From Ginglymostoma cirratum (taxonomy: Eukaryota), in contig JAHRHZ010000267.1 in the NCBI GenBank assembly GCA_024137785.1, forward strand, positions 21,665,100-21,729,099: 64,000 bases of DNA. The letters are read 5' to 3'. Below, piece by piece: positions 12,901 through 59,954 of this stretch; the first letter of the stretch is position 1; every line of letters starts with the position of its first letter. Position numbers and translations under genes: made by a program. Under the pieces are notes generated by a model. It ran no database searches and was not told the DNA's origin. It saw only the letters and a list, made by a program, of their open reading frames with translations.

Positions 12901-13761
12901 CCAACACAGACCATTAAATCTCCTCCTCCCTTGCCTCTCCAACATCTTTTCAAGCAGTACAATGTGCCCTTCACCAGGTAGGGAACAGATATGTAAAATT
13001 GTCAACCCGACTTTAATGGATGCTACTCATCCCCTTTTAAATTGAATAAACTACAAACTTACAGGTAAATTCTCTCAAAACTGGTACCCTCAAAGCCAGT
13101 GGGTCAAATGAAGCACTTGAACCTTGGGAATATACCAGCACACGAGCAAGAGAACAGCTAACAAGTTCAGTGCTATATTACACTTAGCCAAATTGTCCAG
13201 GTAAGTTAACTGTAATTGAGAAATAAAGAAACAAAATGCCTGACATATTCTAAAAATATCTGGTTTTCAGACAATTCCAGTTTTGAGACAGCCAATGCAC
13301 TACCCACTACACATCCTCTCATTCTTCCTTTGGTCAGCTTCTTGCACTAAGGAGCCATGGTCAACATTCTGGCTGTCCATCCACCAGTCCTCATCCTAAC
13401 CCTCCAAGAAATTAAAGTTCCACCGGTTGGATAGGATCATTTTCAGCTGATCCTCATTCTATATCTCACCTGAGCTCTCCTTACTGGGTACTCTGCTGGC
13501 CATATTAAAATGGTTCCGATCCTGCATCTTTTGTACAAAGTCTGACCAAGATCCGAAGAAACTCTGTAGAGTTTGTCACCCCTCCCATAAATGACAGAAT
13601 GTATCCCACTCAAACTCCAGGTCAGTGAGTGAGAGTTTCAGAGGTTAAAACAGAGACATTTACTTCAGGCCTATGCCACTCAGGGTAATCGTGCTTTCCT
13701 CAAATTTCCATGCAGACTCTCGATTTCCGTGTCATAGGGAAAATCCAGCCCAGTGTGTCAG

Positions 13762-13860
13762 TTCTGAGGAAAGGTCACCGGATCCGAAAGATTAACTCTG
13801 TTTTTGCCTTCACAGATGTTGCCAGACCTACTGAGCTTTTCCAGCAATGTTGTTTTTGTT
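13762..13860 (+). mobile_element. Minimal PLE-derived family B element (HHR motif plus 3' arm) with TSD
   Basis: ctgagga-aaggtc-accg-gatcc-gaaagattaactc followed by the gatgttgccagacctactgagcttttccagca arm; flanked by ccagtgtgtcag (13750-13761) and ccaatgtgtcag (13861-13872). Confidence 0.75.
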
Positions 13861-13889
13861 CCAATGTGTCAGCCTTTGTTACAGAAGAG

Positions 13890-14709: not shown

Positions 14710-15178
14710 AACATAGAACAGTACAGCACAGGCCCTTCGGCCCACAATGTTGTGCTGACCTATTAGCCTACTAAAATCAAACTACCCTGCATACCCTACA
14801 TTATACGACCATCCATGTGCCTATCCGAGAGTCGCTTAAATGTCTCTAATGTATCTGACTCCACTACCACTGCCAGCAGCTCATTCCATGCGCCCAGCAC
14901 TCTGTGTAAAGAACCTACCTCTGATATCTCCCTATACCTTCCTCCAATCATCTTAAAATTATGCCCCCTCGTAATAGTCATTTCCGCCCTGGGAAAAAGT
15001 CTCTGGGTCTCCACTCTATCTATGCCTCTCATTATCTTGTACACCTCTATCAAGTCACGTCTCATCCTTCTTTGCTCCAATAAGAAAAGCCCTCGCTCCC
15101 TCAACCTTTCCTCATAAGACCTGCCCTCCATTCCAGGCAGCTTCCTGGTAAATCTCCTCTGCACCCTCTCTAAAGCTT
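14710..15178 (-). mobile_element. Relatively young 5'-truncated HER1/CR1 LINE 3' end
   Basis: Open ORF 14796-15164 (QRRFTRKLPGMEGRSYEERLRERGLFLLEQRRMRRDLIEVYKIMRGIDRV...) is the CR1 ORF2 C-terminus; tail catagaacagtacagcacaggcccttcggccc. Confidence 0.92.
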
Positions 15179-20069: not shown

Positions 20070-20305
20070 AACATGAACATACAAATCAGGAGCAGAAGTA
20101 GGCTATTCAGCCCCTCAATCCTGCTTCACCGTTCAAAAAGATCATGGCTAATTTGACCATAACCTCAAATCCGTATTCCCATCTGTCCCTGAGAACCTCT
20201 CAATTCTTTGCTTACAAAAATCCAACTATCTCTGTCCTAAAAATATTTAAGCACGCTGCTTCCAACATTTCTTTCGGGACAGAGTTCTAAAGACTCATGA
20301 CCTAT
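20070..20305 (-). mobile_element. CR1 3' end
   Basis: aacatgaacatacaaatcaggagcagaagtaggctattcagcccctc is the reverse complement of a CR1 terminus. Confidence 0.75.
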
Positions 20306-23139: not shown

Positions 23140-24165
23140 CCACAGAAACATGGAAAATTGGAACAGGAGTAGGCCATTCAGACCTTTGAGAGTGTTCCAG
23201 CATTCAATGTGATCGTGGATGATCATTCAACTGAATGCCCTGTTCCCACTTCCTCCTCACACCCTTCCATTCCGTTCGCCCGAAGAACTATATCTAAGTC
23301 CATTTTGGAAAACATTCAATGTTTTGACCTCATTACTTTCTGTAATAGAGAATTCCACAGGCTCACCACTCTCTGCGTGAAGAAATTTCTTCTCATCTCA
23401 GTCTTCAATAACCTACCCCATACACTTTTTTTGTGACACTATGTTCTGGCTCCCCAGTCATCAGGAACATTCTCACGGTCCTGTTAGTTTCTATGAGATC
23501 CCCCTCATTCTTCTAACTCCAGTGAATATAATCCTCATCAATCTAGTCTCTCGTCATGTGTGAGTCCACTATCTGGAATCAGTCTGGTAAACCTTTGTTG
23601 TGATCCCTCCATAACTAGAACAATCTTCCTCATAAAAGGAGACAAAAACTGCACACAATATTCCTGGTATGGTCATATCAAGGCTCCGTATAACTGCAGA
23701 AGGACATCCCTGTTTCCTGTATTAGGATCTTCTTGCTATGAAGGCCAACACCCCACTTGCTTTCTTCACCACCTGCTGCACCTGCATACTTACTTTCAGC
23801 GACTGGTGTAGAACAGCCAGGTCTTGTTGCACACTCCCTTCTCCTAATCAATCGCCATTCAGATAATAACCTGCCTTCTTATCTCTGCTAACAAAGTGGA
23901 TAACTTCACATTTATCACCTTACACTGCATTTGCTCACTCATTCAACTTGTCCAAATTACACAGAATCAGCTCTGCAGCTTCCTCACGGCTCACCTTCCT
24001 ATCCAGCATTGTGTCATTTGCAAACTTGGAGCGATTACTTATATTTCCTTCATCTAAATAATCAATATATATTGTGAATAGCTGGGGCCCCAGCACTGAT
24101 CTTTATGATACCGCACTAGTATCTGGCATTTGGAAAATGATCTGTTATTTATTCCTATTCCATTG
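23140..24165 (-). mobile_element. CR1 LINE 3' portion
   Basis: Terminal gaaacatggaaaattggaacaggagtaggccattcagacc; gtgtcatttgcaaacttgg (reverse complement KFANDT); ggccccagcactgatc (reverse complement GSVLGP). Confidence 0.88.
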
Positions 24166-24851
24166 ATTCTGACCTACAAGGAAAAGTTACAATAAATATT
24201 GTTCAGGAGCTGCTCTTCCAATCACAGACTCACTATTTCTGGAAAGCAGCAACCTATCAGCAGACAGAAGCAGCCTCTGATTGGAGGAGCTGTGAGAAAG
24301 TTGAGTGGCAGCAGTGAACCAAGCTGTCCAGGTCGTGTATACAGGGTGGGAGAAAGTGTGGCGAGAGGAACAGAATGGCAAGTCTGACCTGGGATTCAGT
24401 CGGCCGACAGAATGTGGAGTGTAACTGTAAAGTATGGGAGAGGAGCTTCAAATGGAGTGAAGCCAGCAGCAAAAGCGGTGTGGGAAAGGGGCCACAAAAG
24501 GTCAGAAGAGGGCCTTCAAAGGGCAACAAGAGGCTGCATTGTGGGGAGAGGATTTGAAAAGAAAAGGGACAAGTTATAAAAAGGAGAAGTAAGAAGTAAG
24601 ACTTTCAAAAAAAAATAATGTGGATGCTGTTGTCATGAACTCTGTGTTAGTTATGTAATTTAATTCTGAACTGTTTATTTCATAAAGATTTGCTTTGGTG
24701 TTATCAGAGCTCAAAGCATCTCACCACACTGTGAATTACTTGAGGTGCAAGGAATGTGTTAAAAACAAAGTTGCAACCCGTGAACTAGAGATAACAAGGT
24801 GTGGAGCTGGATGAACACAGCAGGCCAAGCAGCATCATAGGAACAGGAGAG

Positions 24852-24885
24852 CTTGACGTTTCGGGCCTAGACCCTTCATCAGAAA
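24852..24885 (-). ncRNA. Minimal type I hammerhead ribozyme motif
   Basis: Minus-strand RNA uuu-CUGAUGA-A-GGGUC-UA-GGCCC-GAAAC-GUC^-aag: full core, stem II, palindromic ACGU stem III, short stem I. Confidence 0.78.
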
Positions 24886-24909
24886 TGTCTGTTATTTATT
24901 CCTATTCCA

Positions 24910-24943
24910 TTTCTGATGAAGGGTCTAGGCCCGAAACATCAAG
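24910..24943 (+). ncRNA. Minimal type I hammerhead ribozyme motif (stem III mutated)
   Basis: ttt-CTGATGA-A-GGGTCTAGGCCC-GAAAC-ATC-aag; GTC changed to ATC, consistent with CpG decay. Confidence 0.65.
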
Positions 24944-27900
24944 CTTTCTTGCTCCTATGATGCTGCTTGGCCTGCTGTGTTCATCCAGCTCCACACCTTG
25001 TTATCTCGGATTCTCCAGCATCTGCAGTACCTTTTATCTCTGCAACCTGTGAACTAACCAGTCCATAAAAAAAAGTGTGTTTATGGTGCTATCTTATGCC
25101 TGTTGTCTTGTGACAATTTATATGCTGTGCAGTCTAGGAAATTAATACCTTCCCTGTGTATTGTGGCTTTAGATTTAATGGCATGCCGATAGTTATTGAG
25201 GATACTGTTGCGTTCTTCTAATTCTGTTTCTGTTTAAGTCTCAATATCCTATGTGCAGCGCCTACACTGGAGATAATGTTACAATTTGAATGCATCACCT
25301 AATAATGGATTTAGCAAGAATGAAGTAGGAGCCCAGTAAACCAAAAGGCAACACCCAAAAATCAAAAAGTTGTCATCAATAAAATCTCAAGAGAAGCCCT
25401 CACCAATGTGCCAAAAAATAATCGGTGTCAGTAGTAAACAGGAATTGTATTCTTTTTCCACTCGCACTCATAAGTAGCAAAAACATGAAAGGCTAAAGAC
25501 TTTTAAGGTTTTTAACATAGTTCATCTAAAGCACTATGAGAGGTACAGATGGGACAACGAAACGAAAAACCAAACATATGGTGATATTTATTCTGAAACA
25601 CAGAACAAGTAAAAAGAAACACATTTTAAGAATCAGATTTGCTTTCGGTGACTGGGTTAGCATTTAGATATCGTGGCAATAATTCAGAGTAACAAGAATT
25701 AATTTAATTCATACTTGTCTATCTAACAAGATCTAATAATCCATGGTTTAGTTTAAAAAAGTATTTTTTTTTTTAAACTGCATTTCTTCTATCTGTAGAA
25801 TTTTCACCGTCCTGGACATTCAGCTTCTGCAATCTTTGGATACCACACATTTGGCTGGTGACCACTGGCTGAAGGATGTGCTCATTGGCATGTTCCTTAT
25901 AAGGTAAATGAAGTGTCATTCCATCTCCTGTGGTTAGTTTCCCTGAACCATCTCAATCAACAGCCTAGTTCTAGATGTACAAGGATCCTCGTGACTAATG
26001 CTAGCACTCCTCCAAAGTTGAAAGTGCACTCATCAGTGTTATTGCAATCTGTCTATATCTCTGCAGAGGAGACTAAACTATTCATTTTATACAAATCTAT
26101 GGCACGTCTGCCGTGGATCCTCCAGCAGAGACCATGTCTTATGAATTTCAATTCTCCCTAATATACAGGTATCATCACTGAGCTATACATCACCAGAATG
26201 ATAGAAAATCAATAACACAGCAATTCCATCTACAAGCTTGACACAAGAAAAAAATCCTCAGGAATATTGCTAAGTGATTGAGAGAATTTTGTAACCTGTT
26301 TGAAAATTAACCTGTATATAGAATTCTGGTAGGTATATTTGCAGTGTCACAAAGACAATCAGGCGATAGCAGATAGCATATATAAGAAAATGAAAAGTTG
26401 TGAAGTTTAAAGTTATCTCCTGCGTATCACTAACAGTTTTTGAGTTTATTGAGTTGTCTATTTTTAAAAAAAAGTACCATTAATTCTTGGATAAGAATCA
26501 GTTTTGGCATGTCAACATGATCTATTTTCTAGATTATAAACTGCTCTAGAGATAGTTCTTACCCTCCAGTCTTACCAGGGTCAGCTGTTCTTTTATCAGT
26601 GCATTTATTAAAAATAAAGGGCTAGAGTTAGCCATGTTGTGTTCAGCCACAGCCCCCAGAAAGCAACTGTATTACTCTGGAGCTATAACAGAGCATGGCC
26701 CGTTATTCCCTAGTTAATATTAGCAGTGGCTCAATTTCAAAGCATATCATTTGATAGCCCTTGCTCCAGGCTGTACCCCTGTCAAATTTTCTACAAAAGA
26801 GCCTGCTCTGGGACTCTTTACAGCACTACCGTTAATCAACAGAAATTATGCAGCAAAGAAAGTAGAAGGCTCTCCATGCGACCCTGGGGACACAGAAAGA
26901 GGGAACGACCAGTGCACATGGAAATGCTGCTGTAACTTCCAAATGAAGCTTGAGCACTCCGGGGACTCAAAATTGGGTCTGACAGTCTGTTACCACAGGT
27001 GCACCATTTTTACAAGTGATAGCTCTGTGACTACATGACTTCCAGCTGTTGTGATCAGCCATCAGTCTGCATTAACCCTACAGTACCTCATCTGTGGTAC
27101 GTCAAGTTACAGCATTCCTAAAATGCAAAAGCTAATTCCAAAAGAAAAATTCTTCCTTTCATCTCTGTCAGAAGAGATCAGTGACAGAAGGTTTTCCATT
27201 GTTCCTGAATTAACTTTCATATATTCCAGTTTCATTTACCTCCATTGATATAAACATTAATCGTGAAAATTGTGAATAGATTTTCTTCTGTTCTTTCTAC
27301 TCTTTTAGTACATATCAAGCAAAAAGATAAATACCTGTACTGTGCTGGTGAACATTTATGAATGTAATAGTTTAAGTACATAGAATTAAAATATAAAGAC
27401 TATTTTGTAGATATGCCATCCATTTCCCTAACGGAACGGCAACAGATCAATACAATCGCCTCATTTAGATTTTAGTTTGCTCAGTCGTATAGGATAAACA
27501 ATTTATATGCATGCCCATTATTCCCATTGATTGTTAACTCTTATATCATAAGTGATGAGGCAAAGAATTCTGTCCAAGTCATTCCTATTTACATCCGATT
27601 AAGATTTATACTAACTGTCGCCTAGAATCATGATGTTATGGTTGAGGATAAAATACCACTGTGTGATGATCTCGCTGCAAAAGCAATTTGATAAATTAAA
27701 TTTGCCAAACATTGGAGAGAAGGAACCTCCAGTTTTGACACGCTCACTCTTACCTACCATCGTAGCTTGCTGCTCCTTTCAATCTGGACTTTGAAAGCTT
27801 GACCCTCCAACTTCTAGAGCCCCCTTCCACCAATCTCTGCCATTCTTAATTGGAATGATGATCCCACCCCCTTCCCCTTAGTGGATCACCCATGGGCATA

Positions 27901-29049: not shown

Positions 29050-29990
29050 TGTTTCACTCAAATACCCATCCAAGTTACTTTTCAAGTTGGTTCTTGTTCC
29101 TAAACAACTTCTTTTGCATATTATTCCCTGTATCTTTTATTCAAAACTTTACATCTTCGTCCCTTTGAGCGTGTATCATCAGATAATGGAAACAGCTCTT
29201 CTTTGCCTACCTTATCTTAACCTGTCATTATCTTGTGCACTTCAATCAAATCTGCCCTAAATCTCCTATGCTCCAAGCATAATACTCTCAAACTAATTTG
29301 CAGCTAAAATTCCTCATTCTTTGAAACATTTTGGCAAAATTCCTCTGGACCCTCTCAAGGACCATCACTTTCTTTCTGAAGTCTGCTGACCAGAGCTACA
29401 TGCAATACCTTATTATCATCCTACCAGAGCTGTATAAGGTTCAACTTTGCTTTTCAACCTTTGTACTCAATACTAGAATCCATGAAGTGCAAGATCCCAT
29501 ATGTTTTTCTAATTCTTTCTCAATATATTCTGCTCCTTTAGATCAATCCACATAAAGTCCCAGATCTCTCTCTCGCTGTACAGTTTAGAATATTCCCATT
29601 AAGTCTGCACTCCCTCTTTCTATCCCTTCCACTAAAATGAAACATTTCACACCTCATTGTACCAAATTCTGTCACTGTTCATTCTCCTGACCTATCTCTA
29701 TCCTGCTGAAGTCAATTACTAGCACCCTTGCTGTTTGCCACTCGTCTAAGTTTGGTATCATCTACAAACAATGAAATTTTACTTTGCATTCCTATATTGA
29801 AATCATTTATTTACATTTAAAAAAGCACTGGTCCCAGCACTGACTGTTTGGGAATACCACTGCTTCCATCCTCTCATCTGAAGAACTATTTTCCATGACA
29901 CACCGTTTGCTGTCCTTAGACCATTTCTTTTATCCAAACTGACACAGATCATCCTTTTCGATTAGCATCGTTTTTGTTAACCAGCCTTTT
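29050..29990 (-). mobile_element. Decayed CR1 RT fragment
   Basis: tttggtatcatctacaaa (reverse complement FVDDTK); ggtcccagcactgactgtttgggaataccact (reverse complement SGIPxxSVLGP). Confidence 0.75.
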
Positions 29991-31635: not shown

Positions 31636-32192
31636 TAGTTGACTGAAAAATAAATATGATCTGATAACCACGATGGAGACATGGCTGCATGGTGACAAGG
31701 GTAGGTCCTGAATATTTATGGGCATATAACATTACAGAAGATTATTAAGCCAGGTAAAGGTGGAAGGGGAAAACTAACAATGCTGGCACTGGTGCAACAG
31801 TTAGGGATAACCTTAGTTCAGGAGATCAAGAGGTAGAATCAATTTGGATTGAGTTGAAGAATAGTAGAGGAAATAAGTCATGAGTAGGGACAGTTTATAG
31901 ACTCCCAAACAGAAACCATGATGCAGGATTAATTCTACAAAGAAATACTGAGTGCTCGTGGTAAAGGCAAGGCAATAATCATGGACAATTTTAATCCACG
32001 TATAAACTGCAATGGTAGTCTGGATGAAGAGTTCAAAGAATGTTTTTGAGATATTTTCTTAGAGCATCACATTCTAAAACACACCAGGTTATAATAGAGA
32101 TAAAAGGTACTGCAGATGCTGGAGAATCCGAGATAACAAGCATGGGGCTGGATGAACACAGCAGGTCAAGCAGCATCATAGGAGCAGGAAAA

Positions 32193-32226
32193 CTTGACGT
32201 TTCGGGCCTAGACCCTTCATCAGAAA
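32193..32226 (-). ncRNA. Minimal type I hammerhead ribozyme motif, intact
   Basis: Minus-strand RNA uuu-CUGAUGA-A-GGGUCUAGGCCC-GAAAC-GUC^-aag. Confidence 0.78.
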
Positions 32227-32232
32227 TGGGGG

Positions 32233-32332
32233 NNNNNNNNNNNNNNNNNNNNNNNNNNNNNNNNNNNNNNNNNNNNNNNNNNNNNNNNNNNNNNNNNNNN
32301 NNNNNNNNNNNNNNNNNNNNNNNNNNNNNNNN
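32233..32332. other. Assembly gap (100 N)
   Basis: Run of N; the same 32 nt (ttcgggcctagacccttcatcagaaatggggg) flanks both sides. Confidence 0.99.
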
Positions 32333-35300
32333 ATTCGGGCCTAGACCCTTCATCAGAAATGGGGGAGGGGAAGAGGGTTCTGAAATAAATAGGGAGAGAG
32401 TGGGAGGCGGATAGAGGATGGATAGAGGAGAGGATAGGTGGAGTGGAGGCAGACAAGTCGAAGAGGCAGGGATGGAGCCAGTAAAGGTGAGTGTAGATAG
32501 GGCAGTAGGGAGGAGATAGGTCAGTCCAGGGAGGACGGACAGGTCAAGGGGGCGGGATGATGTTAGTAGATAGGAGATGGGGGTGTGGCTTGAGGTGAGA
32601 GGAAAAACAAGTTAGGGAGGTGGAGATGAGCTAGAGATAAAAGGTACTGCAGATGCTGGAGAATCCGAGATAACAAGCATGGGGCTGGATGGACACAGCA
32701 GGTCAAGCAGCATCATAGGAGCAGGAAAACTTATAATAGACTCAGTTTTGTGCAATATTAGAGGATTAATGAACGACACCAGAGTTTAGGTTCCCCTAAA
32801 TAGCAGGGACGACAACATTTTACATCGAGTCTGAAGGGGAGAAGAGTGGGTCTAAGTCTTAAGCCTAAGTAAGGGCAATTATGTTGACGTGAAAGTTGAG
32901 CTAGCCAAGGTGGACTAGGATAAGCAGCTAGGGGATAAATGAATAAGAAAGCAGAGGCAGATATTTAAGGGATATTTCAGAACACTCAGAATGAACATAT
33001 TCCTATGAAAAAAAAATTAAAATGGAGAACCACCAGCTGTGGTTAAGTAAGAGGCTAAGGAAAACAGCAAACGTAAGGGAAAAGTATATTATTCCACAAA
33101 GGTGAGTGGCAAATCAGATAACTGGGCAAAATATAAAGAACAGCAGAGAATGTCCAAGTAGATTAATACAGAGAAAGAAATTAAAGAATGAGAGGAAACT
33201 AGCTGGAAATGTAATAATGGATCGCAAGAGCTTCTACAGATATTTAAAAAGGAAATGAGTAAATAAAGTGATTGTTGATTCTCCAACTGTGAGAATGGGG
33301 AGTATGAAACTCAGAATACGCTTAAATGGATCTTTTTCAGATCAGAAGAGAGTGACAAGGGGAGTCATGCAGGTGCCTATGCTGGGGCCTCTACTTTGTA
33401 CAATTTACATCGGTGACTTAGATGAGGGGAGCAAAGGCATGGTAGCGAAACTTTTACCTGACAAAAAGATAGGTAGAAAAGCATGTTGTGAAGAGGATAT
33501 GAGGAGGATGCAGATAGTCATAGAGTGGGCAAAAATTTGGCAAATGGAGCATACATTGGCAAATATGGGAAAAATGTGAGGTTGAGAACTTTGGCCGGAA
33601 AAGTAGTAATGTGTAGTATTACTTAAGTTCTGACTGCAGAGTTTTAAGGGCAGAGAGTTCTAGGTGTTCTAGTACATGAGTCACAACATGTTAGTATGTA
33701 GCAATTAATTAAAAAGGGTAATGGAATACTTGCCTTTATCACAAGAGGAAATGAAAACTAAATCAAGGAGTTACACTTCAGTTTTGCGGAGCATGAGCAT
33801 GATCCCAAGTAAGTGTGTTAGAGGTGGTTCGAAGTAGGTTTATTCTGGAGGACAGGTTGGACAAAATGGACTTACATTGGTGCTTAGAACAGTGATGGGT
33901 GACGACTGAATTTTGCGAGATTCTGAACAGTGTTGACAATGTGGATGTTACAAGAAAGGTTCCTCTTGTGGGTGAGTCCACAATTAGGAAGCAGTTTAAA
34001 AATTAATGGTCACAGCTTTAGAGAGACATTTTTCCTCTGACAGCTGCCAGAATTTTGCAACACTCTGTCTCCAAACATGTTGGGGTTGCCTTAGAATATT
34101 TTTAAGATGGAGGTAGACAGATACTCGTTCGGCAAAGGAGGCACTGGGATTAGATGGGAAATTGAAATTCAAAATGCATATAGATCAGGCATGATTTTAT
34201 TGCATGGCGAAGCAGGCTATAGGCAGCGAATGGCCTATTTCTGCCCCTAATCTGTATATTCATTTCTCAAACTCTCAAGCTGTGAACAACCACAACGGAT
34301 GTTACTGATTTAATACACCAGTGATTTTAGTAAAGAACTCTGAACTTGTGACATGATCACAGGGGTCAGACAGCAATGTTTTGCCATCTACTTTTAAAAC
34401 AGAGAAACAAAAAGACACAATCCTTCCAGCAAGGAGAGACCATCCGAAAATCATTGAACTGGTCGTATAGTTCCCTTGCAGCTAATGTACTGAACAGCTA
34501 TACTTCAAAGTGAGAGAAGGAGTCTCCCCACACTGTTCTAATTTCAGGTTCAACTGAGAGCTGACCAGCCACAATTCACTCAAGAAGCCTTGGAGTTCAT
34601 TTAGAGACCTCGGCTTTCCAAGACCTTCATTCCAGCCAAAGCATCAATACATCTAAGAAATTACAGGGCTGTTATGTAAGTGAGATGGACACAACAACAT
34701 ATTGTAATCATATCGTCCAAGACACAGGCAAGAAAACGAAGGTATTATCTGTGTAGTTGACCACTGGGTATATGGGCTCAAAAGGCACTGGCTTGATACT
34801 GACAAAACTCATTCACAGCTGACTTTTTCAGGCACCAGAGATTAGAAGTATTCATCCCATCAAAGCAGACGAGAATTAGGCAGTAAAGACAAATGGGCAG
34901 GATGTTAATCCACTGCTCCAAAACCACGAAAGAATTCTTCCAGAGAATTTGTTCATATGAGAGGCAGCCTAGAGCTGCAGTCTAACAACCCCAAAGATCT
35001 TTGGTGGACAAGCTGACCTAACCCAAGCTCACTTACACGAAAAAAAAGTACATTGCAGGCAATCCCCTGAAATGTGAAATGTGATGGTGCTGAAACAGGG
35101 AGGAAATATAAGATTATGCACTAAAAAAAATTAAATAATACAAGGCACTTCTGTGATATATTTCAGAATATCAAACATAATGATGTTGTCCCACACTCCA
35201 TGTTCATATATTAAGCTGCTTGGGATGAGTTCAAATGTAACAGATGTGAGTGCTGCAGCAGGATCTTTCCCCAAGAGGCCAACAATTTTGAGAACAGGCT

Positions 35301-39192: not shown

Positions 39193-40291
39193 ATGTAAGA
39201 ACATAAGAAGTAGGAGCAGGAGTAAGCAATTCAGCCCCTCGAGCCTGCTCCACTATTTAATATCCACAGCTGATCTCATTTCACCCACAACTCCACTTTC
39301 CTGCTTGCTTTCCATAACCGCTTAACCCATCACTAACTAAAAATCTGTCTATCTCCTTCTTAAATTTACTAGATCTCCTGAATCTACCACATCCTGGGGT
39401 ACTGAATTCCACGGATGCATAAACATTTGAGAGAAGAAAATTCTCCTCAACTCTGTTTTAAATCTGCTACCCCTTATCCTAAGACTAACATCTTGTTTTA
39501 GATTGCCCCACATGAGAAAACATCCTCTCTACATCTACATTGTCAAATCCCTTTAGGATCTTATATCCCAATTAGATCTCCACTCACTCTGCTAAACTCC
39601 AGAGAGTACAGGCTTGAAATGCCCAATAGCTGTTCATGATACAAACCCCTTACCTCTGCAATCAATCTATTGAACCTCTTCTGAACCGCCTCTGATCCCT
39701 CCTCATGTAAGAGGTCCAAAATTGTACTTAATATTCCATTTAAGTCTCACTAATGCCTTATACATTTGCAGCAATTCTTTATTACTTTTATACTCTGTTC
39801 ATTTAGAAATAAATGCCAAAATTACATTTGCCATCTTTATTACATGCTGTACTTGCATATTAATTTTCTGCAATTCATGCACAAGGATACCCAGATACCC
39901 TGGCACCAAAGCACTCTGAAATTTCTCTCTAGTTCAATAACAAGTTGCCCTTGTTTTCCTCCAGCCAAAATGGAAAACCTCACAGTCACATTAAACTTCA
40001 TTTGCTATTTTGGACTTTCCAAATGTCTGTTATTACTTCCTTAATAATGGATTCTAACAACCTCTCAATACTACATGTTAAACTAGCTGGGCCACAGTTT
40101 CCTAATATCGGACTCCTTCCCTTTTTGAATAAGGGCATTATGTTAGGATATTTTCAATCCCCTGGAACCTTTCCTGCATAAAGGAAATTTTAGAATATAT
40201 AACCAATTGATTCACTATTTCTGCTGCCATTTTCTATAACTCCCTAGGATGTAGGCCATCAGGCCCTGGGGACTTGTCTGCCTTCAATCCC
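39193..40291 (-). mobile_element. CR1 LINE, internally deleted, nested in another CR1
   Basis: Terminal taagaacataagaagtaggagcaggagtaagcaattcagcccctcgagcctgct; ends at catcaggccctggggacttgtctgccttcaatcc (reverse complement LKADKSPGPDG). Confidence 0.85.
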
Positions 40292-41445: not shown

Positions 41446-41645
41446 AATAAAAACAGAAACGGCTGGAGAAACACCGCAAGTCTGACAGTTAACGTCAGAA
41501 GTTTTGGAGAAGGCTTGAAGAAAGTTTTGAAATGTTAACTCTGTTTTCTCTTCACAGATCCTGCCAGACCTGGTGGATTTCATCAATAATTTCTATTTTT
41601 GTTTGTTTCACATCTCCAGCATCTGTAGTTCTTTGTTGTGATTTA
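41446..41645. mobile_element. Old PLE-derived family B palindromic element
   Basis: aaaaacagaaacggctggagaaacacc...gttaacgtc opposite gaaatgttaactctg...ccagacctgg...ctccagcatctgtagttc. Confidence 0.65.
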
Positions 41646-47540: not shown

Positions 47541-47737
47541 AATAAAAACCAAAAGAACTGTGGATGCTGTAAATCAGGATCAAAAACAAAGTTGCTGGAA
47601 ATTAACGTTTCGGGTCCGGTGACCCTCAGAAGAGTTCTGAGTTCTGAGGAAGGGTCGTCGGAGCGGAAATGTTAACTCTGTTTTCTCCTCCACAGATGCT
47701 GCCAGACCTGCTGAGCTTTTCCAGCAACTTTATTTTT
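47541..47737. mobile_element. PLE-derived family B palindromic element with two degenerate HHRs and 15-bp TSD
   Basis: ttaacgtttcgggtccggtgaccctcag (minus HHR) and gagttctgaggaagggtcgtcggagcggaaatgttaactc (plus HHR); TSD gttcaaaatatgttt (47526-47540) and gttcaaaataagttt (47738-47752). Confidence 0.82.
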
Positions 47738-47837
47738 GTTCAAAATAAGTTTCTCTTTTGAGAATTTCTCCAGAGGTATTTTTAGTTCTCACCAAGTCTT
47801 TTATTGGGTGATGCAGTTATATACGAACAACACTTCT

Positions 47838-48101: not shown

Positions 48102-48934
48102 CACCACAGCTAAATAGGTGCATGTTTGTCTTTAAGACACCTTAAATAATACAACAAATGTGAGATGCTTTTAGATGTGAGAACAGATTAATGCAAATCT
48201 TTGTGAAATAAAACTGTTCGGCATTAAATTATCCGATTAGTACAATTGCAGCCATTATTCCTTTGTAAAAATGGATATGATATTATTCCTCCCTTTGCAT
48301 TCCCTCTACTCCTTGGAGTGCTTCCTTCCCACTTCTTCCTTCTAGCTCCTCTTTACACCTTCTCTCTACCTTTGTTGTTTCTCCCCAACTCTTTGCAGCT
48401 TGTCTCCCTTCCTTTGCTGTTTTTCTCATCCTTTGGCAGCTCCTCTTCCCCTTTTTCAATTCCTTAGCAGCTCTTCTACACCTCGTCAGTCCCTTTTTCT
48501 CTTCGACCGTCCTAGCCCCCAGCTTCCTTCCCATCAGTCCAATGGCACAGCAGCTTGTGCCTCTTTTCCTTGTTGCCACACCCTCAGGCCCTGTGACCTC
48601 CAACCCTGCTACTTGTACCTCTGCTGTCATCAGTCTGGCCTCTCCTGTGTTTGTCACCGAAACGCTCCTGTATATTTTGAGCGTTGGTATACAGCTTTTC
48701 AGCTCTTTCTGTAAGAAACATACGTTGAGGTCCTCCCAAACACTGGACACATGACTTTTTCCAGACCTGCTGAGTTTCTCCAGCAATTTCTGTTTAAGTA
48801 GGCATGTGCATTGTGAGGAAGATGTAAAGTGGCTTCAGAAGGATTTGGAAGGCTTAGTGAGTGGGCTGGAACATGGCATCATGACATAACTTTATGATGT
48901 GTCTTCAAAGTAGCTTCCCAAAAGATTGTTATCA

Positions 48935-50070
48935 TGACATCAGGAGTGCCACAATATGAGCAATTAACCAATCACAGGATAGGAAGGAATGTGCTGGCAT
49001 GGATGACTGACTGTCTGTTAAGCAGCGAGTAAGAATAAACAGGTCATTCTCACATTGCCAGGTGATGACTAGTGGGATACCACAAAGACCAGTACTTAGG
49101 GCCTCGCTGTCCAAAACATACATCAATGATTTGGAATTGGGGACGAAGTGTAATATTTCCAAAATATACAGATGATACAACGCTAGGTAGGAACTGCAAA
49201 ATACTAAAACAAAGAACTGCAGATGATGGAAATCTCAAACAAAAACAGGTATTGTTAGAGAAACTCAGCAGGTCTGGAAGAATCTGTGGAGAGACTGCAG
49301 AGTTAATATTTCGAATCCAGACTTCATGTTCTGACGAAGGGTCACTGGACTCGAACATTAACTCCGTTTCTCTCTCTCCACAGATGCTGGCAGACCTGCT
49401 GAGTTTCTCCAGCAATTTCTGGTCATGTTTAAGTAGGAATGTCTGCTGTGAGGAAGATGTAAAGTGGCTACAGAAGGATTTGGATAGGTTTAATGAATGG
49501 GCAGGAACATGGCAGTGGAAGATAATGTGGAAAATGTGAGGTTATCCATTTTGGCTGGAGAAAACATTGGTGCAAAGTGTTTCTTAAAAGGAAAGTGGTT
49601 GGAAACTTTAGATGTACAAAAGGGACTTAGGTGTCCTTGTTGCTAATTCACCAAAGGCTGGTGCAGCAACCTAATGGGTAAGCTTATAGAATGTTAGCCT
49701 TTAATACAAGAGGATTTGAGTACAGGAGCAGTGGAGTCTTGTTTCAATTGGAAAATAGCTTGGGTGGAGCACACACAGTACTATATGCATTTATCATCTT
49801 TTTATCTCAGGAAAAGATATTATTGCCACGGACAGCGTGCAATGAAGGTTCACCAGACTTGTTCCCACTATGATAGAACTATCCTTTAACGAGACATTGG
49901 GCAAACTTGGTCTAAATTCGATAATGTTAAGAACAGCAGGTAATCTCATTGAAACTTACAAAATACGTAAACAGATAGATGCCGGAAAGATGTTTCTCCT
50001 GGTTGGGGACTAGAGAAACTGGGAGCACAATTTAACAGTAAGGGAACTATCACTTTAGTTTGTGATGAGG
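48935..50070 (+). mobile_element. CR1 RT to near 3' end, interrupted by a PLE-derived element
   Basis: agtgggataccacaaagaccagtactt (SGIPQ), KYTDDTTLG, EEDVKWLQKDLDRFNEWA. Confidence 0.85.
49200..49423. mobile_element. PLE-derived family B palindromic element
   Basis: Inverted arms gagaaactcagcaggtctg and cagacctgctgagtttctc; HHR motif ctgacga-agggtc-actg-gactc-gaacattaactc. Confidence 0.8.
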
Positions 50071-50800: not shown

Positions 50801-51423
50801 CAGTTAAGATCATTCATTCATTAACATACAGAAGAGGTTTAAATTTCCCAAAACTTTTCACTGCGCTAGCGAATAGCTGTAGGCGAGGTAAATGGGTAAG
50901 GTGGCATGTGGTGAGGTTAGGTCAGGTTGAGTCAGTTAGAGAGTTTGGAAGATTCAAGTTGTGGCAGGGAGAGGGATTTGCACAGTTGGTGGAATCAGAG
51001 GGTCCGCGCAGTGTGCCAGAGGGCAGCGGTGGGGCTGGCGGTGGCAGTGTTAAGCAGAAATTGGAGGAATGTTCAGTCAAATAGACAGGAATAAGAAATG
51101 TTTTTTTATTTGTATAACAACTTGTGAATAACTTTCAGACTCAATAATAAACGAGTGGAGTGCTTTAATTACCGTCCCTATCTTCTAATGACGATGAGGA
51201 CACAATAATTAAAATTAATGTTGGAGGGCCTGTTATTAAAGACAGGTCTGCAATCTCTGGTTTTGAAGCCAATATTACTCAATTGACTGTTCCCTCTTAG
51301 AGGAACAAAAAAATCAAAATAATGCAGATCTTGGAAATCCGAAACAAAACTGGAAAATACTGAAAACATTCAATAGATCTGGCAGTTTCTCTGGAGAGAA
51401 AAACAGAATTAACATTTCGAGCA

Positions 51424-51542
51424 ACCGAGATAACAAGCGTGGGGCTGGATGAACACAGCAGGTCAAGCAGCATCATAGGAGCATGAAAACTTGACGTTTC
51501 GGGCCTAGATCCTTCATCAGAAACAGTACCTTTTATCTCTGA
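51424..51542. mobile_element. Young PLE-derived family A element: inverted arm plus 17-nt terminal stub, 14-bp TSD
   Basis: Arm gagataacaag...catcagaaa followed by cagtaccttttatctct (51524-51540) in the opposite orientation; TSD taacatttcgagca at 51410-51423 and 51543-51556. Confidence 0.87.
51490..51523 (-). ncRNA. Minimal type I hammerhead ribozyme motif
   Basis: Minus-strand RNA uuu-CUGAUGA-A-GGAUCUAGGCCC-GAAAC-GUC^-aag; one stem II mismatch. Confidence 0.68.
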
Positions 51543-52914
51543 TAACATTTCGAGCAGATGCCTTTTTGTCAGTACTGTCAAAAATTGGGACAGCAGTTAA
51601 AGAAATTCAAAGCAGGGAAGAGGATAAGATAAAACACAAGGGTGATGGCTGTGATGGGGTGCAAGGCAGGATTGACAAAATGGGTTGTCAATGGGACAAA
51701 CATACAGAAAGCCAGAGAAATTGTCAATGACAGTGGTGATGGCAGTAGTTATGTTCCAGAATTGTTGAACTCCAAGTTGAGTATGGAGGGATGTAGAGTT
51801 CTGGCGAAATGTTATCAATCTACAAAGTTGAGAGTTTTCTGGAGATGCTGCCTGACCTGCTGAGTATTTTCAGCATTTTCTATTTTTATTTCCATCATCT
51901 GGAATGGTTACGTCAGTTTCAAATAACCGGTAAAGCAATTATTTACTGGCACAGAACTATTCACTGCCATGTAATACTGAGAAACCAAGTCCAGATCAAT
52001 TAACTTCAAAACGCTGATTTTCATCAGTGCATGGTTTAAACAGTTATTCTGTGATTGATCTTCCTGGCCAGAGCAAAGATCTTGGTTTTATATTAAAACA
52101 AGTTCTCTTCTCAAAACATCTGAATTGCAGCAAATGCTTATATAGTGTTGTCTTTGATCCTGCAGTAGATTAGAGATTTGTATTCTGATAAATAAGCGTT
52201 TCTGCCACTGTTCTATACTGGCATATCTGCTGCAAAGCTGCTGCACTCTTGCAAGAGGTAGTGCAAAAAGAGGACTTGCAGAATGACAATGCGTTGTTGC
52301 ATTGAGCTCGTACAAAGTAGTGTGACATTTGTAGTCTGAATTTTACCAGTCCTCCAAGTTGTTGGAGTTTTGAATTACTTATGCAAGCCATGCCAATATA
52401 ACAGATGACAACAGCAGATAAAAAGAAATACAGACTGGTCATGTTGGATGCTACTTAGAACATGACAAGATTTTCCTCAAAAGACCAAATATCCCTACAG
52501 AATTTTCACCAATGATTTACCTAAAGTATGTGGCTGCTAATGATAAAGTAAAGCCGAACGTATTGCACTGGACAAACACAAATCTAAATCAAAGTAAACC
52601 TAAGATGTCAAATGGCAAATTTAAGATTGAGCACTAAAATAGTGAGGCATGATGACCTGCTTGAGCAAAAAACGTTGCTGTTGCTTTGGGACATTGATCA
52701 TTGGTATCGAAATATCAACCTGCAATTTGATTTCGAGGTCACTAAGATCAGCTTCAAAGCACATTTTTAATAGCGTTACTCTTAGAGGCATGTTCCACAT
52801 GGGGATTTGGCTTTAAGTAAACATAATTTCAGAATAACAAACGTGCCAAGTTCCTCATAGGTATAGATTTTATTTTGCCTCTGAAAACAATAGTTATATA
52901 ACATCAAACACCAT

Positions 52915-58525: not shown

Positions 58526-58737
58526 CAAAAAAAAACCTAAAGAACTGCGGATGCCGTAAATCAGAAACCAAAACAGAAGTTGCTGGAAAAGCTCAGCAGG
58601 TCTAGCAGCATCTGCAGAGAGAAATCTGAGTTAATGTTTCGGGTTCTGTGGAAGGGTCACCGGTCCTGGAACGTTAACTCATTTCTCTTCACAGATGCTG
58701 CCAGACCTGCTGAGCTTTTCCAGCAACTTTTGTTTTG
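58526..58737. mobile_element. PLE-derived family B palindromic element with 13-bp TSD
   Basis: Inverted arms aagttgctggaaaagctcagcaggtct and agacctgctgagcttttccagcaactt; HHR-like ctgtgga-agggtc-accg-gtcct-ggaacgttaactc; exact TSD ctttttattttct at 58513-58525 and 58738-58750. Confidence 0.85.
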
Positions 58738-59954
58738 CTTTTTATTTTCTTACATTGAGGAATTATATCCAAAAAAAATTTTGCTTTGTGGAAAGAGGTT
58801 CCAGGCTACAGCTATACTGGAAGGTATTTGTATTGTCCAATGTTCAGCAAGCACAGATGAGTTACAGTGCCAAGTACAGCTCATATTAAACTAAACAATA
58901 CTGAAGGTCTGCTCACGTGCGCTCCAAACCACAAATGCAGGACTCTACGCTCTAGGTAGTCATTTTTGACATGAAAAAGCAGGCAAAGTTTGTAGAACTC
59001 AAGTAGTGTGAGGATACCTAAGTTAAGGTTGGGGTTGACACCTGCTTCACAAGACCCAGGTGTTGACAGCAAAAGAGCATCATAACAAGAACTAATGTTG
59101 AAGTTATTAGGGCAGGGATAAATACATTTTAAAAGTAAAATCTTCTGTGTTCTTGCATTAATTCACATGAGTAATATCACTGGTAATATCAAAGAGATGT
59201 TATGATGACTGATGACATCACTATGAACTGTTTGTGCATTTGTCCAAGGGTTTCTCAAAGATTTGTGGAAGCAGAGATGGGAACATTTGTTTCAAGATAT
59301 AATGGCAAACAACTGGTGAAGCTGCCAAACTCAAAAAAACACATTTGCGCTTGAGGGTTCTTGAGATTGTTGACTCAGATTGTGATGCACCCAGTGTGAT
59401 TTAATGACAGGCAGGTTTTCCCATTTTTGAAGTTAGTGCTCACCAAGGACAGATTTTGCCCTGTATCAGAAGGAAACAAAGAAATATAAGGACCAGATTG
59501 TCAGGCTGACACATTCCTCTCTCTGGGTGATATTCCTGGAGGAAGGTCATCGCTGACACAGTCAAAATAATTAGATATAAATTTGCAGGCTGATTAGGAA
59601 TTTCACTGGGATCCTCCAAACGTGGAAGGGACCTTGACTGAGAGCTAAGTGCAGCAGATTCCTGGGGGTGGCAGGCCAACATAGGACCACCAAGCCTCTT
59701 GTTACAACTCCCCACATTCCACCCATAATCCTTAAAAGGTGGGCCTAAAAGTGGCCTATTAGTTGGGGATGCCTCGGAGGAGATCTCTCAGGGAGGCACA
59801 CTGATAAACAGTACTGGGAAATGGGGGAGTGGAAATGATACTACCCTTTCATCACGACTTTTAAAGGTCACAGGATTCCACTCATAGTTTTCCACACTGA
59901 AAATGAGGAGGATGGCAGATTCCACTCCTGTCTGGGACTGAAATAACTGCTGTT

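Follow-up and report, generated by a model that had tools for sequence, protein, structure and literature searches.

Do the minimal hammerhead ribozymes (HHRs) of animal Penelope-like elements (PLEs) cut in vivo, and why are they retained? The question is raised by one insertion in the genome of Ginglymostoma cirratum. The 64,000-nt stretch that we analysed (contig JAHRHZ010000267.1 of assembly GCA_024137785.1, positions 21,665,100 to 21,729,099; hereafter the window) contains at 32089..32740, on its minus strand, a short 5'-truncated, two-piece (partial tandem) insertion of an autonomous PLE, whose upstream piece starts at the predicted cleavage site of the element's own ribozyme. As an element it belongs to a known class and is nothing out of the ordinary; the interest lies in the readout offered by the 5' junctions of the family, which with more than 55,000 copies in the genome can stand in for RNA 5' ends. 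Copy ends rise at the predicted cut throughout the genome, and the evidence on balance slightly favours the view that most templates are uncut capped RNA, that a few percent are self-cleaved, and that the rise records this minority.

Layout of the insertion and its ribozyme

Positions are counted on the minus strand from the first base after GTC (position 0), which is 32195 in the 3' arm and 32732 in the 5' arm. The minus-strand letters at the ribozyme read ...GAAACGTC^AAGTTTT..., with the cut predicted between 32196 and 32195. In the direction of the element, the 5' copy of the target site duplication (TSD; 10 nt, 32731..32740) comes first, its last 2 nt being also the first 2 nt of the element, and is followed by the 5' arm (32633..32732, 0 to +99), which starts with the post-cut letters. 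The pyrimidine-rich body (32361..32632) is pseudo-LTR (pLTR) sequence from about -303 to -33; its upstream end is the junction between the end of the open reading frame (ORF) and the pLTR, a site of apparent self-insertion in other copies. A hammerhead fragment (32333..32360) lies left of an assembly gap of 100 N (32233..32332). Both gap flanks are overlapping hammerhead sequence, and the fragment, which overlaps the sequence right of the gap, is likely an assembly duplicate. The minimal type-I hammerhead (32192..32227, -32 to +3), the 3' arm or tail (32096..32195, 0 to +99) and the 3' TSD copy (10 nt, 32089..32098, its first 3 nt overlapping the 3' end of the arm) complete the insertion. The end of the 3' arm falls in one of two internal start zones of reverse transcriptase (RT) that characterize the family, and the two arms carry a single difference in 100 positions.

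Family reads connect 32200 to 32334, leaving out 133 nt. Collapsing the gap in this way gives a repeat period of 404 nt, the gap itself still standing at the window locus, where neither it nor its flanks were spanned by contigs of X15, X16 or X18. The first-pass annotation of this sequence had described the cut site, the element start with its 2-nt TSD overlap, and an arm-body-HHR-arm order with a period of about 400 nt, and in these respects it described the locus correctly.

The ribozyme consists of a stem I of 3–4 bp, a core with one extra A, a stem II of 4–5 bp and a loopless palindromic stem III. Core positions such as A9 follow the usual hammerhead numbering. The core pattern was observed 3 times in the window against 0.03 expected, and Rfam returned no match at gathering score. 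Minimal type-I HHRs of PLEs are described with an extra nucleotide after A9, a short stem I and a loopless palindromic stem III (PMC4209133). The present ribozyme fits this description, and self-cleavage at GUC is predicted.

Copy ends rise at the predicted cut

Truncated copies were enriched by requiring three non-C letters where whole copies have CCC, and subfamilies were typed by a downstream letter. A wide sample (71 of 100 listed matches fetched, one with N dropped, n = 70) had 36 starts at -34..-29, 13 at -28..-21, 1 at 0..+2 and 4 at 0..+8. The focused sample started from 200 listed matches, of which 195 remained after removal of duplicates and 118 after restriction to AAG-frame subfamilies and exclusion of internal-deletion and gap classes; its starts numbered 16 at -8..-1, 69 at 0..+8, 20 at +9..+14 and 13 at +15/+16. 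Whole-genome counts, which cover five intervals, were 577 at -8..-4, 105 at -3..-1, 451 at 0..+2, 374 at +6..+8 and 222 at +12..+14.

Real junctions carry microhomology, on average 2.4 nt in 22 TSD-resolved events (12 more have short inserts, often inverted tail pieces), and the null models were therefore made aware of microhomology. The counts were normalised by enumeration under eight uniform-null settings, combining four microhomology weights with 0 or 40% inverted flanks. The resulting junctions per nt were 176–209 at -8..-4, 142–197 at -3..-1, 438–566 at 0..+2, 543–983 at +6..+8 and 261–407 at +12..+14. Across the eight settings the rate at 0..+2 thus exceeds that at -3..-1 by a factor of 2.6–3.8 and that at -8..-4 by 2.2–3.0. 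Junctions with genomic flanks alone keep the step (8 at -8..-1, 42 at 0..+8 and 10 at +9..+14, these being 60 of 66; p between 3e-4 and 2e-6). An AAA run 5–7 nt upstream offers similar microhomology, yet its junction rate is low. Among 100 listed matches at 0..+2, about 5–7 are leaks from a one-base-shorter subfamily and about 7 represent one recurrent fold-back junction; the step survives their removal. By a rough hand estimate, the excess in the plateau from 0 to +8 amounts to some 3–10% of short copies.

It had been proposed beforehand that truncation points be searched for a peak at GUC^, with a uniform distribution as the outcome that would speak against cleavage. Uniformity is rejected and the excess begins at the cut. 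It forms a plateau rather than a peak at that nucleotide, is minor beside the peak at -32 described next, and is not reproduced in a small sample from an older subfamily.

The main 5' peak and the extra G

The largest 5' peak lies 32 nt upstream of the cut (the 36 of 70 wide-sample starts at -34..-29), and by hand estimate it is about 6–8 times denser per nt than the plateau at the cut. A pattern capturing starts at -38..-32 matched 4,119 copies. In 100 listed matches inspected by eye, the base before the A at -32 was C, the templated base, in 49, G in 38, A in 10 and T in 3. G thus accounts for 38 of 51 non-templated cases, and a script gave 8 of 11 in 30 loci. Where copies start at the C of -33, G precedes in 16 of 29 (by eye). 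At the cut, by contrast, the preceding base was G in 13 of 48 AA-starting copies (by eye) against a background of 0.30, and the difference between the two sites is significant with p = 3e-6 by Fisher's exact test.

An extra G is the signature of RT copying the m7G cap, and the sequence around the -32 start fits the initiator consensus. Because the extra G precedes it, the -32 peak is likely the capped transcription start, which would be the first base of the ribozyme and lie at 32227 in the window. Inverted pieces may have served as template for part of these Gs. In many copies of this peak, moreover, the TTT run that follows the first A is longer by at least one T (for example L062, L079, L085 and L330), as if RT slipped just before the RNA 5' end. 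In Penelope of D. virilis, transcription starts inside the pLTR from an internal promoter (PMC2377424).

Self-cleavage and its alternatives

These results suggest the following sequence of events. Transcription from the pLTR promoter would begin at -32, where the ribozyme has its first base, and give a capped mRNA. On it, RT would initiate at an internal site, 65 or 100 nt behind the cut, and copy from there to the RNA 5' end, which would yield the mass of 100–135-nt copies. In a minority of RNAs the ribozyme, probably dimeric or assisted by protein, would cut off the 32-nt capped leader; on the cleaved RNA, RT would run off at 0, and joining through microhomology would trim 0–8 nt and leave ends without G at 0..+8. 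It falls just short of what we would call probable that the hammerhead, located at the extreme 5' end of the capped mRNA, works as a self-decapping switch. The genome would then preserve both states, the capped one in tens of thousands of copies that stop at the cap and carry its reverse-transcribed G, the cleaved one in a few thousand that stop at the cut and lack it. The first-pass annotation had read the window locus as a genomic record of self-cleavage in vivo; its version with RT running off the end of a cleaved 3' fragment is our leading reading, with an excess that begins at the cut, in the modified form of a minor class of ends spread over 9 nt and not reproduced in the older subfamily.

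Several observations weigh against cleavage as the source of the step. Few starts of the wide sample lie there (the 1 and 4 of 70 given above). The excess extends over the 9 nt from 0 to +8 with its maximum at +6..+8, not as a spike at 0, and over +12..+14 it is only 1.2–2.1-fold. AA-starting copies make up 48 of 100 against about 42 expected by hand estimate, and the null reproduces the observed junction microhomology only roughly. The older subfamily, in noisy data, has 15 ends in -9..-1 and 20 in 0..+8 (41 of 57 events), several of the upstream ends being diverged or deleted whole ribozymes. Among 30 fetched copies with an arm|body junction like that of the window, none has an upstream piece starting in 0..+8. 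As to the cap signature, a position of the extra G outside the TSD can be assigned in only 3 loci (a TSD was called in 7 of 30). The predicted minimum is a fold other than that of the ribozyme, whose stems I and II cost 10 kcal/mol when forced, and stem II lacks two-sided covariation in 154 near-identical copies, where stem changes are confined to a one-sided U-G/C-G switch at -16/-13 and CpG-type changes. Minimal hammerheads have low activity in vitro (PMC4209133), and for Poseidon of Anolis carolinensis (PAc) it is reported that no RNA-seq reads end at the cut and that the main substrate is uncut RNA (PMC11167929).

The main rival is a hairpin across the cut, favoured by the predicted fold. 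The step could be real and independent of the ribozyme, caused by RT pausing or falling off at RNA structure, by a preference for junctions in the A/T-rich AAGTTTT, or by a cellular nuclease, and the match in the window would then be incidental. The 3' arm of the hairpin, +2..+10, nearly coincides with the plateau, and together with AA microhomology it would also produce an edge near 0. The maximum at +6..+8, the strong junction microhomology and the older subfamily fit this explanation as well, and at the strongest microhomology setting the excess over +12..+14 drops to 1.2–1.3. Against it, the step does not lessen in the +3 C variant, in which the local fold is without the hairpin (45 of 100 matches at 0..+2 compared with 34 of 100 upstream, p = 0.15). 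The stronger hairpin of stem II gives no excess at its base, -8..-4 being low, and the base of the alternative hairpin (+9..+11) accounts for only 10 of 118 events. The upstream edge is also sharp, -3..-1 being the lowest interval measured. We consider a ribozyme-independent step rather unlikely.

Ends at 0..+8 could instead reflect secondary capped transcription starts downstream of the main one, on RNA that is never cut. Dispersed starts are common at TATA-less promoters, and near -32 transcription begins at no fewer than two positions (-33 and -32), a shoulder reaching to -21. The extra G found at -32 is absent at 0, the one position of the plateau that this test covers, and this explanation is quite improbable.

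The family as a Penelope-like element

A 29-mer of the arm has 55,847 exact matches in the 4.36 Gb genome. In 5 of the first 30 loci the body runs upstream into common sequence encoding RT and a GIY-YIG endonuclease, the ORF lying directly upstream of the body. The ORFs of L324 and L327 matched Pfam RVT_1 (E = 1.4e-5 and 1.5e-6) and GIY-YIG (E = 1.9e-4 and 0.059), all slightly under the curated cut-offs; Pfam gave no family for two shorter ORF pieces, and a sequence search of PDB returned two weak unrelated matches only. A protein search with the ORF found 971 homologues at E ≤ 1e-30, RVT_1 and GIY-YIG domains being present in many of them, and the best matches were from carpet sharks (91%, 86% and 77% identity).

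The translation has a DKG motif (ADKGG) ahead of the RT core, cysteines between the GIY and YIG halves (VVYC..C..C.FLYIG; CCHH), and a C-X4-C-X2-C linker of the CX2-5CxxC type before the endonuclease. The first two are features of endonuclease-bearing (EN+) PLEs, and the linker is tied to the Neptune clade, with Naiads possibly carrying it too (PMC8557442). Because of these three traits we classify the family, from its encoded sequence, as an EN+ PLE with RT plus a C-terminal domain of GIY-YIG type in one ORF, likely of Neptune type. Other habits of PLEs are all found: partial tandems (pLTR), inverted 5' pieces (inverted junctions in 77 of 200), an optional tail of 30–40 nt, and TSDs of variable length (9–17 nt, callable in 34 of 226 events). 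The 3' ends fall in two zones within the arm, +62..+69 (111 of 226) and +99..+106 (83 of 226).

The order in the family is pLTR body, hammerhead, 100-nt arm, ORF start. At L339 the arm reads on into sequence similar to the N-termini of related ORFs (E = 4e-13), and 111–115 nt of this continuation are common to three further loci; homology to the main ORF begins at about +137 after the cut. Because of this continuation the arm reads as the mRNA leader between ribozyme and ORF, which makes the arm|body junction of the window non-native. Nine 7-kb stretches held no complete pLTR-ORF-pLTR copy. Two upstream ORFs lie in the leader. One (window 32220-32176, minus strand) has its ATG in the ribozyme core, in the same place as the start codon of PAc, and stops after 14 codons; the other (32178-32096, minus strand) has an ATG pair at +16/+19 and runs for about 39 codons in L339 (L339:430-600). 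Assembly gaps are very frequent directly at the ribozyme or at inverted junctions, some with duplicated ends (L019, L022, L023, L024, L027, L339 and others). Since the gaps fall at these places, the numbers given for complex copies are minimum values, and certain pairs are possibly assembly duplicates.

The arm|body junction and a possible circle

The remaining alternative, that a circular retrozyme of 404 nt (arm, body and ribozyme) was copied for more than one round, is largely refuted and the least probable of those considered here. The collapsed period lies at the upper end of the 170–400 nt range of animal retrozymes (PMC7229834), direct body-HHR-arm|body-HHR-arm tandems occur (L031 is an example), and vertebrates, including one cartilaginous fish, have PLE-derived retrozymes (bioRxiv 10.64898/2026.07.22.740005). 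A propagating circle would, however, give uniform junctions and arrays. The arm|body pattern, in which the downstream side was fixed, has 32 matches genome-wide against the 55,847 of the arm, in at least seven letter forms, the form of the window being found in 4 of 32, and no array of more than two units occurred among 30 arm|body copies. The native sequence after the arm is the start of the ORF, and copying of a circle offers no reason for a stop at the ligated site. Retrozymes are recognised by tandem units, at least two of them consecutive with a complete HHR, by a uniform junction and by the lack of an ORF; the family does not fit this profile, and with a small probability the gap conceals units at the window locus.

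Instead, 14 of the 30 copies with this junction appear to have inserted into an older copy, with ORF-side sequence just upstream that ends at -307..-292 (by eye). In 11 of these 14 it overlaps the downstream piece by about 9–15 nt in the manner of a TSD (by eye). At L032, L035, L036, L039, L040, L041, L043, L045, L046, L047, L051, L052, L053 and L060 (junction at about position 1520 of each) the element seems to have entered older copies of itself at -307..-292, immediately ahead of the ORF stop codon, mostly with duplications of 9–15 nt. Since fewer than one such event is expected by chance (by hand), the ORF-pLTR junction is likely a preferred target of the element's own endonuclease, the count covering this junction only.

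The earlier suggestion of a retrozyme-like unit of about 400 nt copied repeatedly therefore gives way to an autonomous PLE whose arm continues into its ORF and whose arm|body junction is rare and heterogeneous. A search for other copies of the 32632/32633 junction had likewise been recommended; it yielded the 32 matches with varying letters, and none of the 30 fetched starts at the cut. A joint of 32732 to 32334 in reads of the family was considered as a circle junction and rejected, being the family's normal continuity of ribozyme and arm.

Origin of the window copy

One TSD and arms that are 99% alike lead us to infer two rounds of reverse transcription within one insertion. A first round would have copied tail, ribozyme and body up to -303; after re-priming near -303, a second round would have produced the 5' arm (32633..32732) and stopped at the cut site, within 0 to +2, AA serving for the joining to the target. 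An estimated 1–2% of copies (by hand) start within 0..+2 and the window contains three copies of the family, so the coincidence of element start and cut at this single locus is modest by itself. About half to two thirds of the ends at 0..+2 belong to the excess, and it is for this reason possible, if somewhat doubtful, that the window copy derives from a self-cleaved RNA.

The second copy (24781-25056) combines an inverted and a direct piece, 20 nt apart, both ending at the -31..-34 peak; it lies within a TSD of about 15 nt (one mismatch) and resembles priming from both target strands. The third (51419-51545) begins at -31 behind a 17-nt inverted fragment of the long tail end, has the short tail end as its 3' end, and has a TSD of about 14 nt.

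Another, older repeat family (labels D2, D4, D5, I5 and I7) has an arm-like core and close inverted pairs (13760-13864, 41545-41600, 47640-47744, 48742-48797, 49211-49433, 51832-51887 and 58539-58748) and is probably also derived from a PLE. Further dispersed repeats of the window are D3 and D7 (20075-20136, 23146-23207 and 39199-39260; 15017-15080 and 29213-29276).

The raw polyA run X23 gave no evidence either way on cleavage: its depth is equal in both orientations, 82% of the aligned reads pass into dissimilar sequence, and neither starts nor ends accumulate near the cut. Run X24 contributed 35 reads. Joints at L321:474/475 may stem from the one-base-shorter subfamily and were not used.

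Implications and comparison with known systems

Two signatures, a cap-like peak with G where the ribozyme begins and a G-less step at the cut, together provide a cheap test that can be applied across species, and they point to removal of a leader, not to the making of circles. If the self-decapping switch is real, the germline would hold evidence that animal PLEs have minimal hammerheads that cleave in vivo and that the cleaved RNA still retrotransposes. Both RNA states would then be readable from assemblies alone for any high-copy PLE family, a form of fossil 5'-RACE.

No earlier account of a step in PLE 5' junctions at the hammerhead cut, or of PLE copies carrying a cap G, came up in a literature search with thin coverage of subscription papers and without supplements; Fig. 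S2 of PMC11167929, on genomic copy ends, may bear on the matter. Nor did this search yield a citable paper for the cap-G signature.

The closest relatives are the EN+ PLEs with minimal hammerheads (Cervera & de la Peña 2014, PMC4209133; Craig et al. 2021, PMC8557442). They share with the present family the single ORF with RT and C-terminal GIY-YIG, the DKG motif and the cysteines between the GIY and YIG halves; the minimal type-I HHR with an extra nucleotide after A9 and a loopless palindromic stem III; and the partial tandems, inverted 5' pieces, optional tail of about 35 nt and variable TSD. The available text of the two papers contains no mapping of genomic 5' ends relative to the cut, and Craig et al. 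call the function of PLE hammerheads unclear. The present family differs from these reports in a ribozyme that would begin at the capped start and in 5' ends that become more frequent at the cut.

PAc (Frangieh et al. 2024, PMC11167929) resembles it in that RT starts at two internal sites some 110 nt behind the ribozyme, internal initiation there explaining the two-site tail, and in extension of both strands, uncut RNA as the dominant template and nicking at the ORF-pLTR junction. PAc ribozyme mutants still insert. The ORF of PAc starts inside stem II, whereas the ATG found there in the present family leads to a stop after 14 codons and ORF homology begins about 137 nt after the cut. The Neptune-type cysteine linker also sets the family apart from PAc, as does the step at the cut in its genome, where the PAc RNA-seq showed no ends.

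The animal non-LTR retrozymes (PMC7229834; bioRxiv 10.64898/2026.07.22.740005) likewise carry a type-I HHR, in a unit of about 400 nt derived from the PLE pLTR. The present family differs in having no uniform-unit tandem arrays, heterogeneous junctions, an autonomous ORF and, if the gap collapses, one complete HHR at the window locus.

The HDV-like 5' ribozymes of R2 (Eickbush et al. 2013, PMC3774820) offer the parallel for the readout itself, as the genomic 5' junctions of R2 reflect the position of cleavage, and cleavage at the element end goes with variable junctions primed by microhomology. R2 needs cleavage to free its RNA from the rRNA co-transcript, and all full copies reflect the cut. 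The present ribozyme is of another class and would lie behind the element's own promoter, and only a few percent of copies would reflect its cut.

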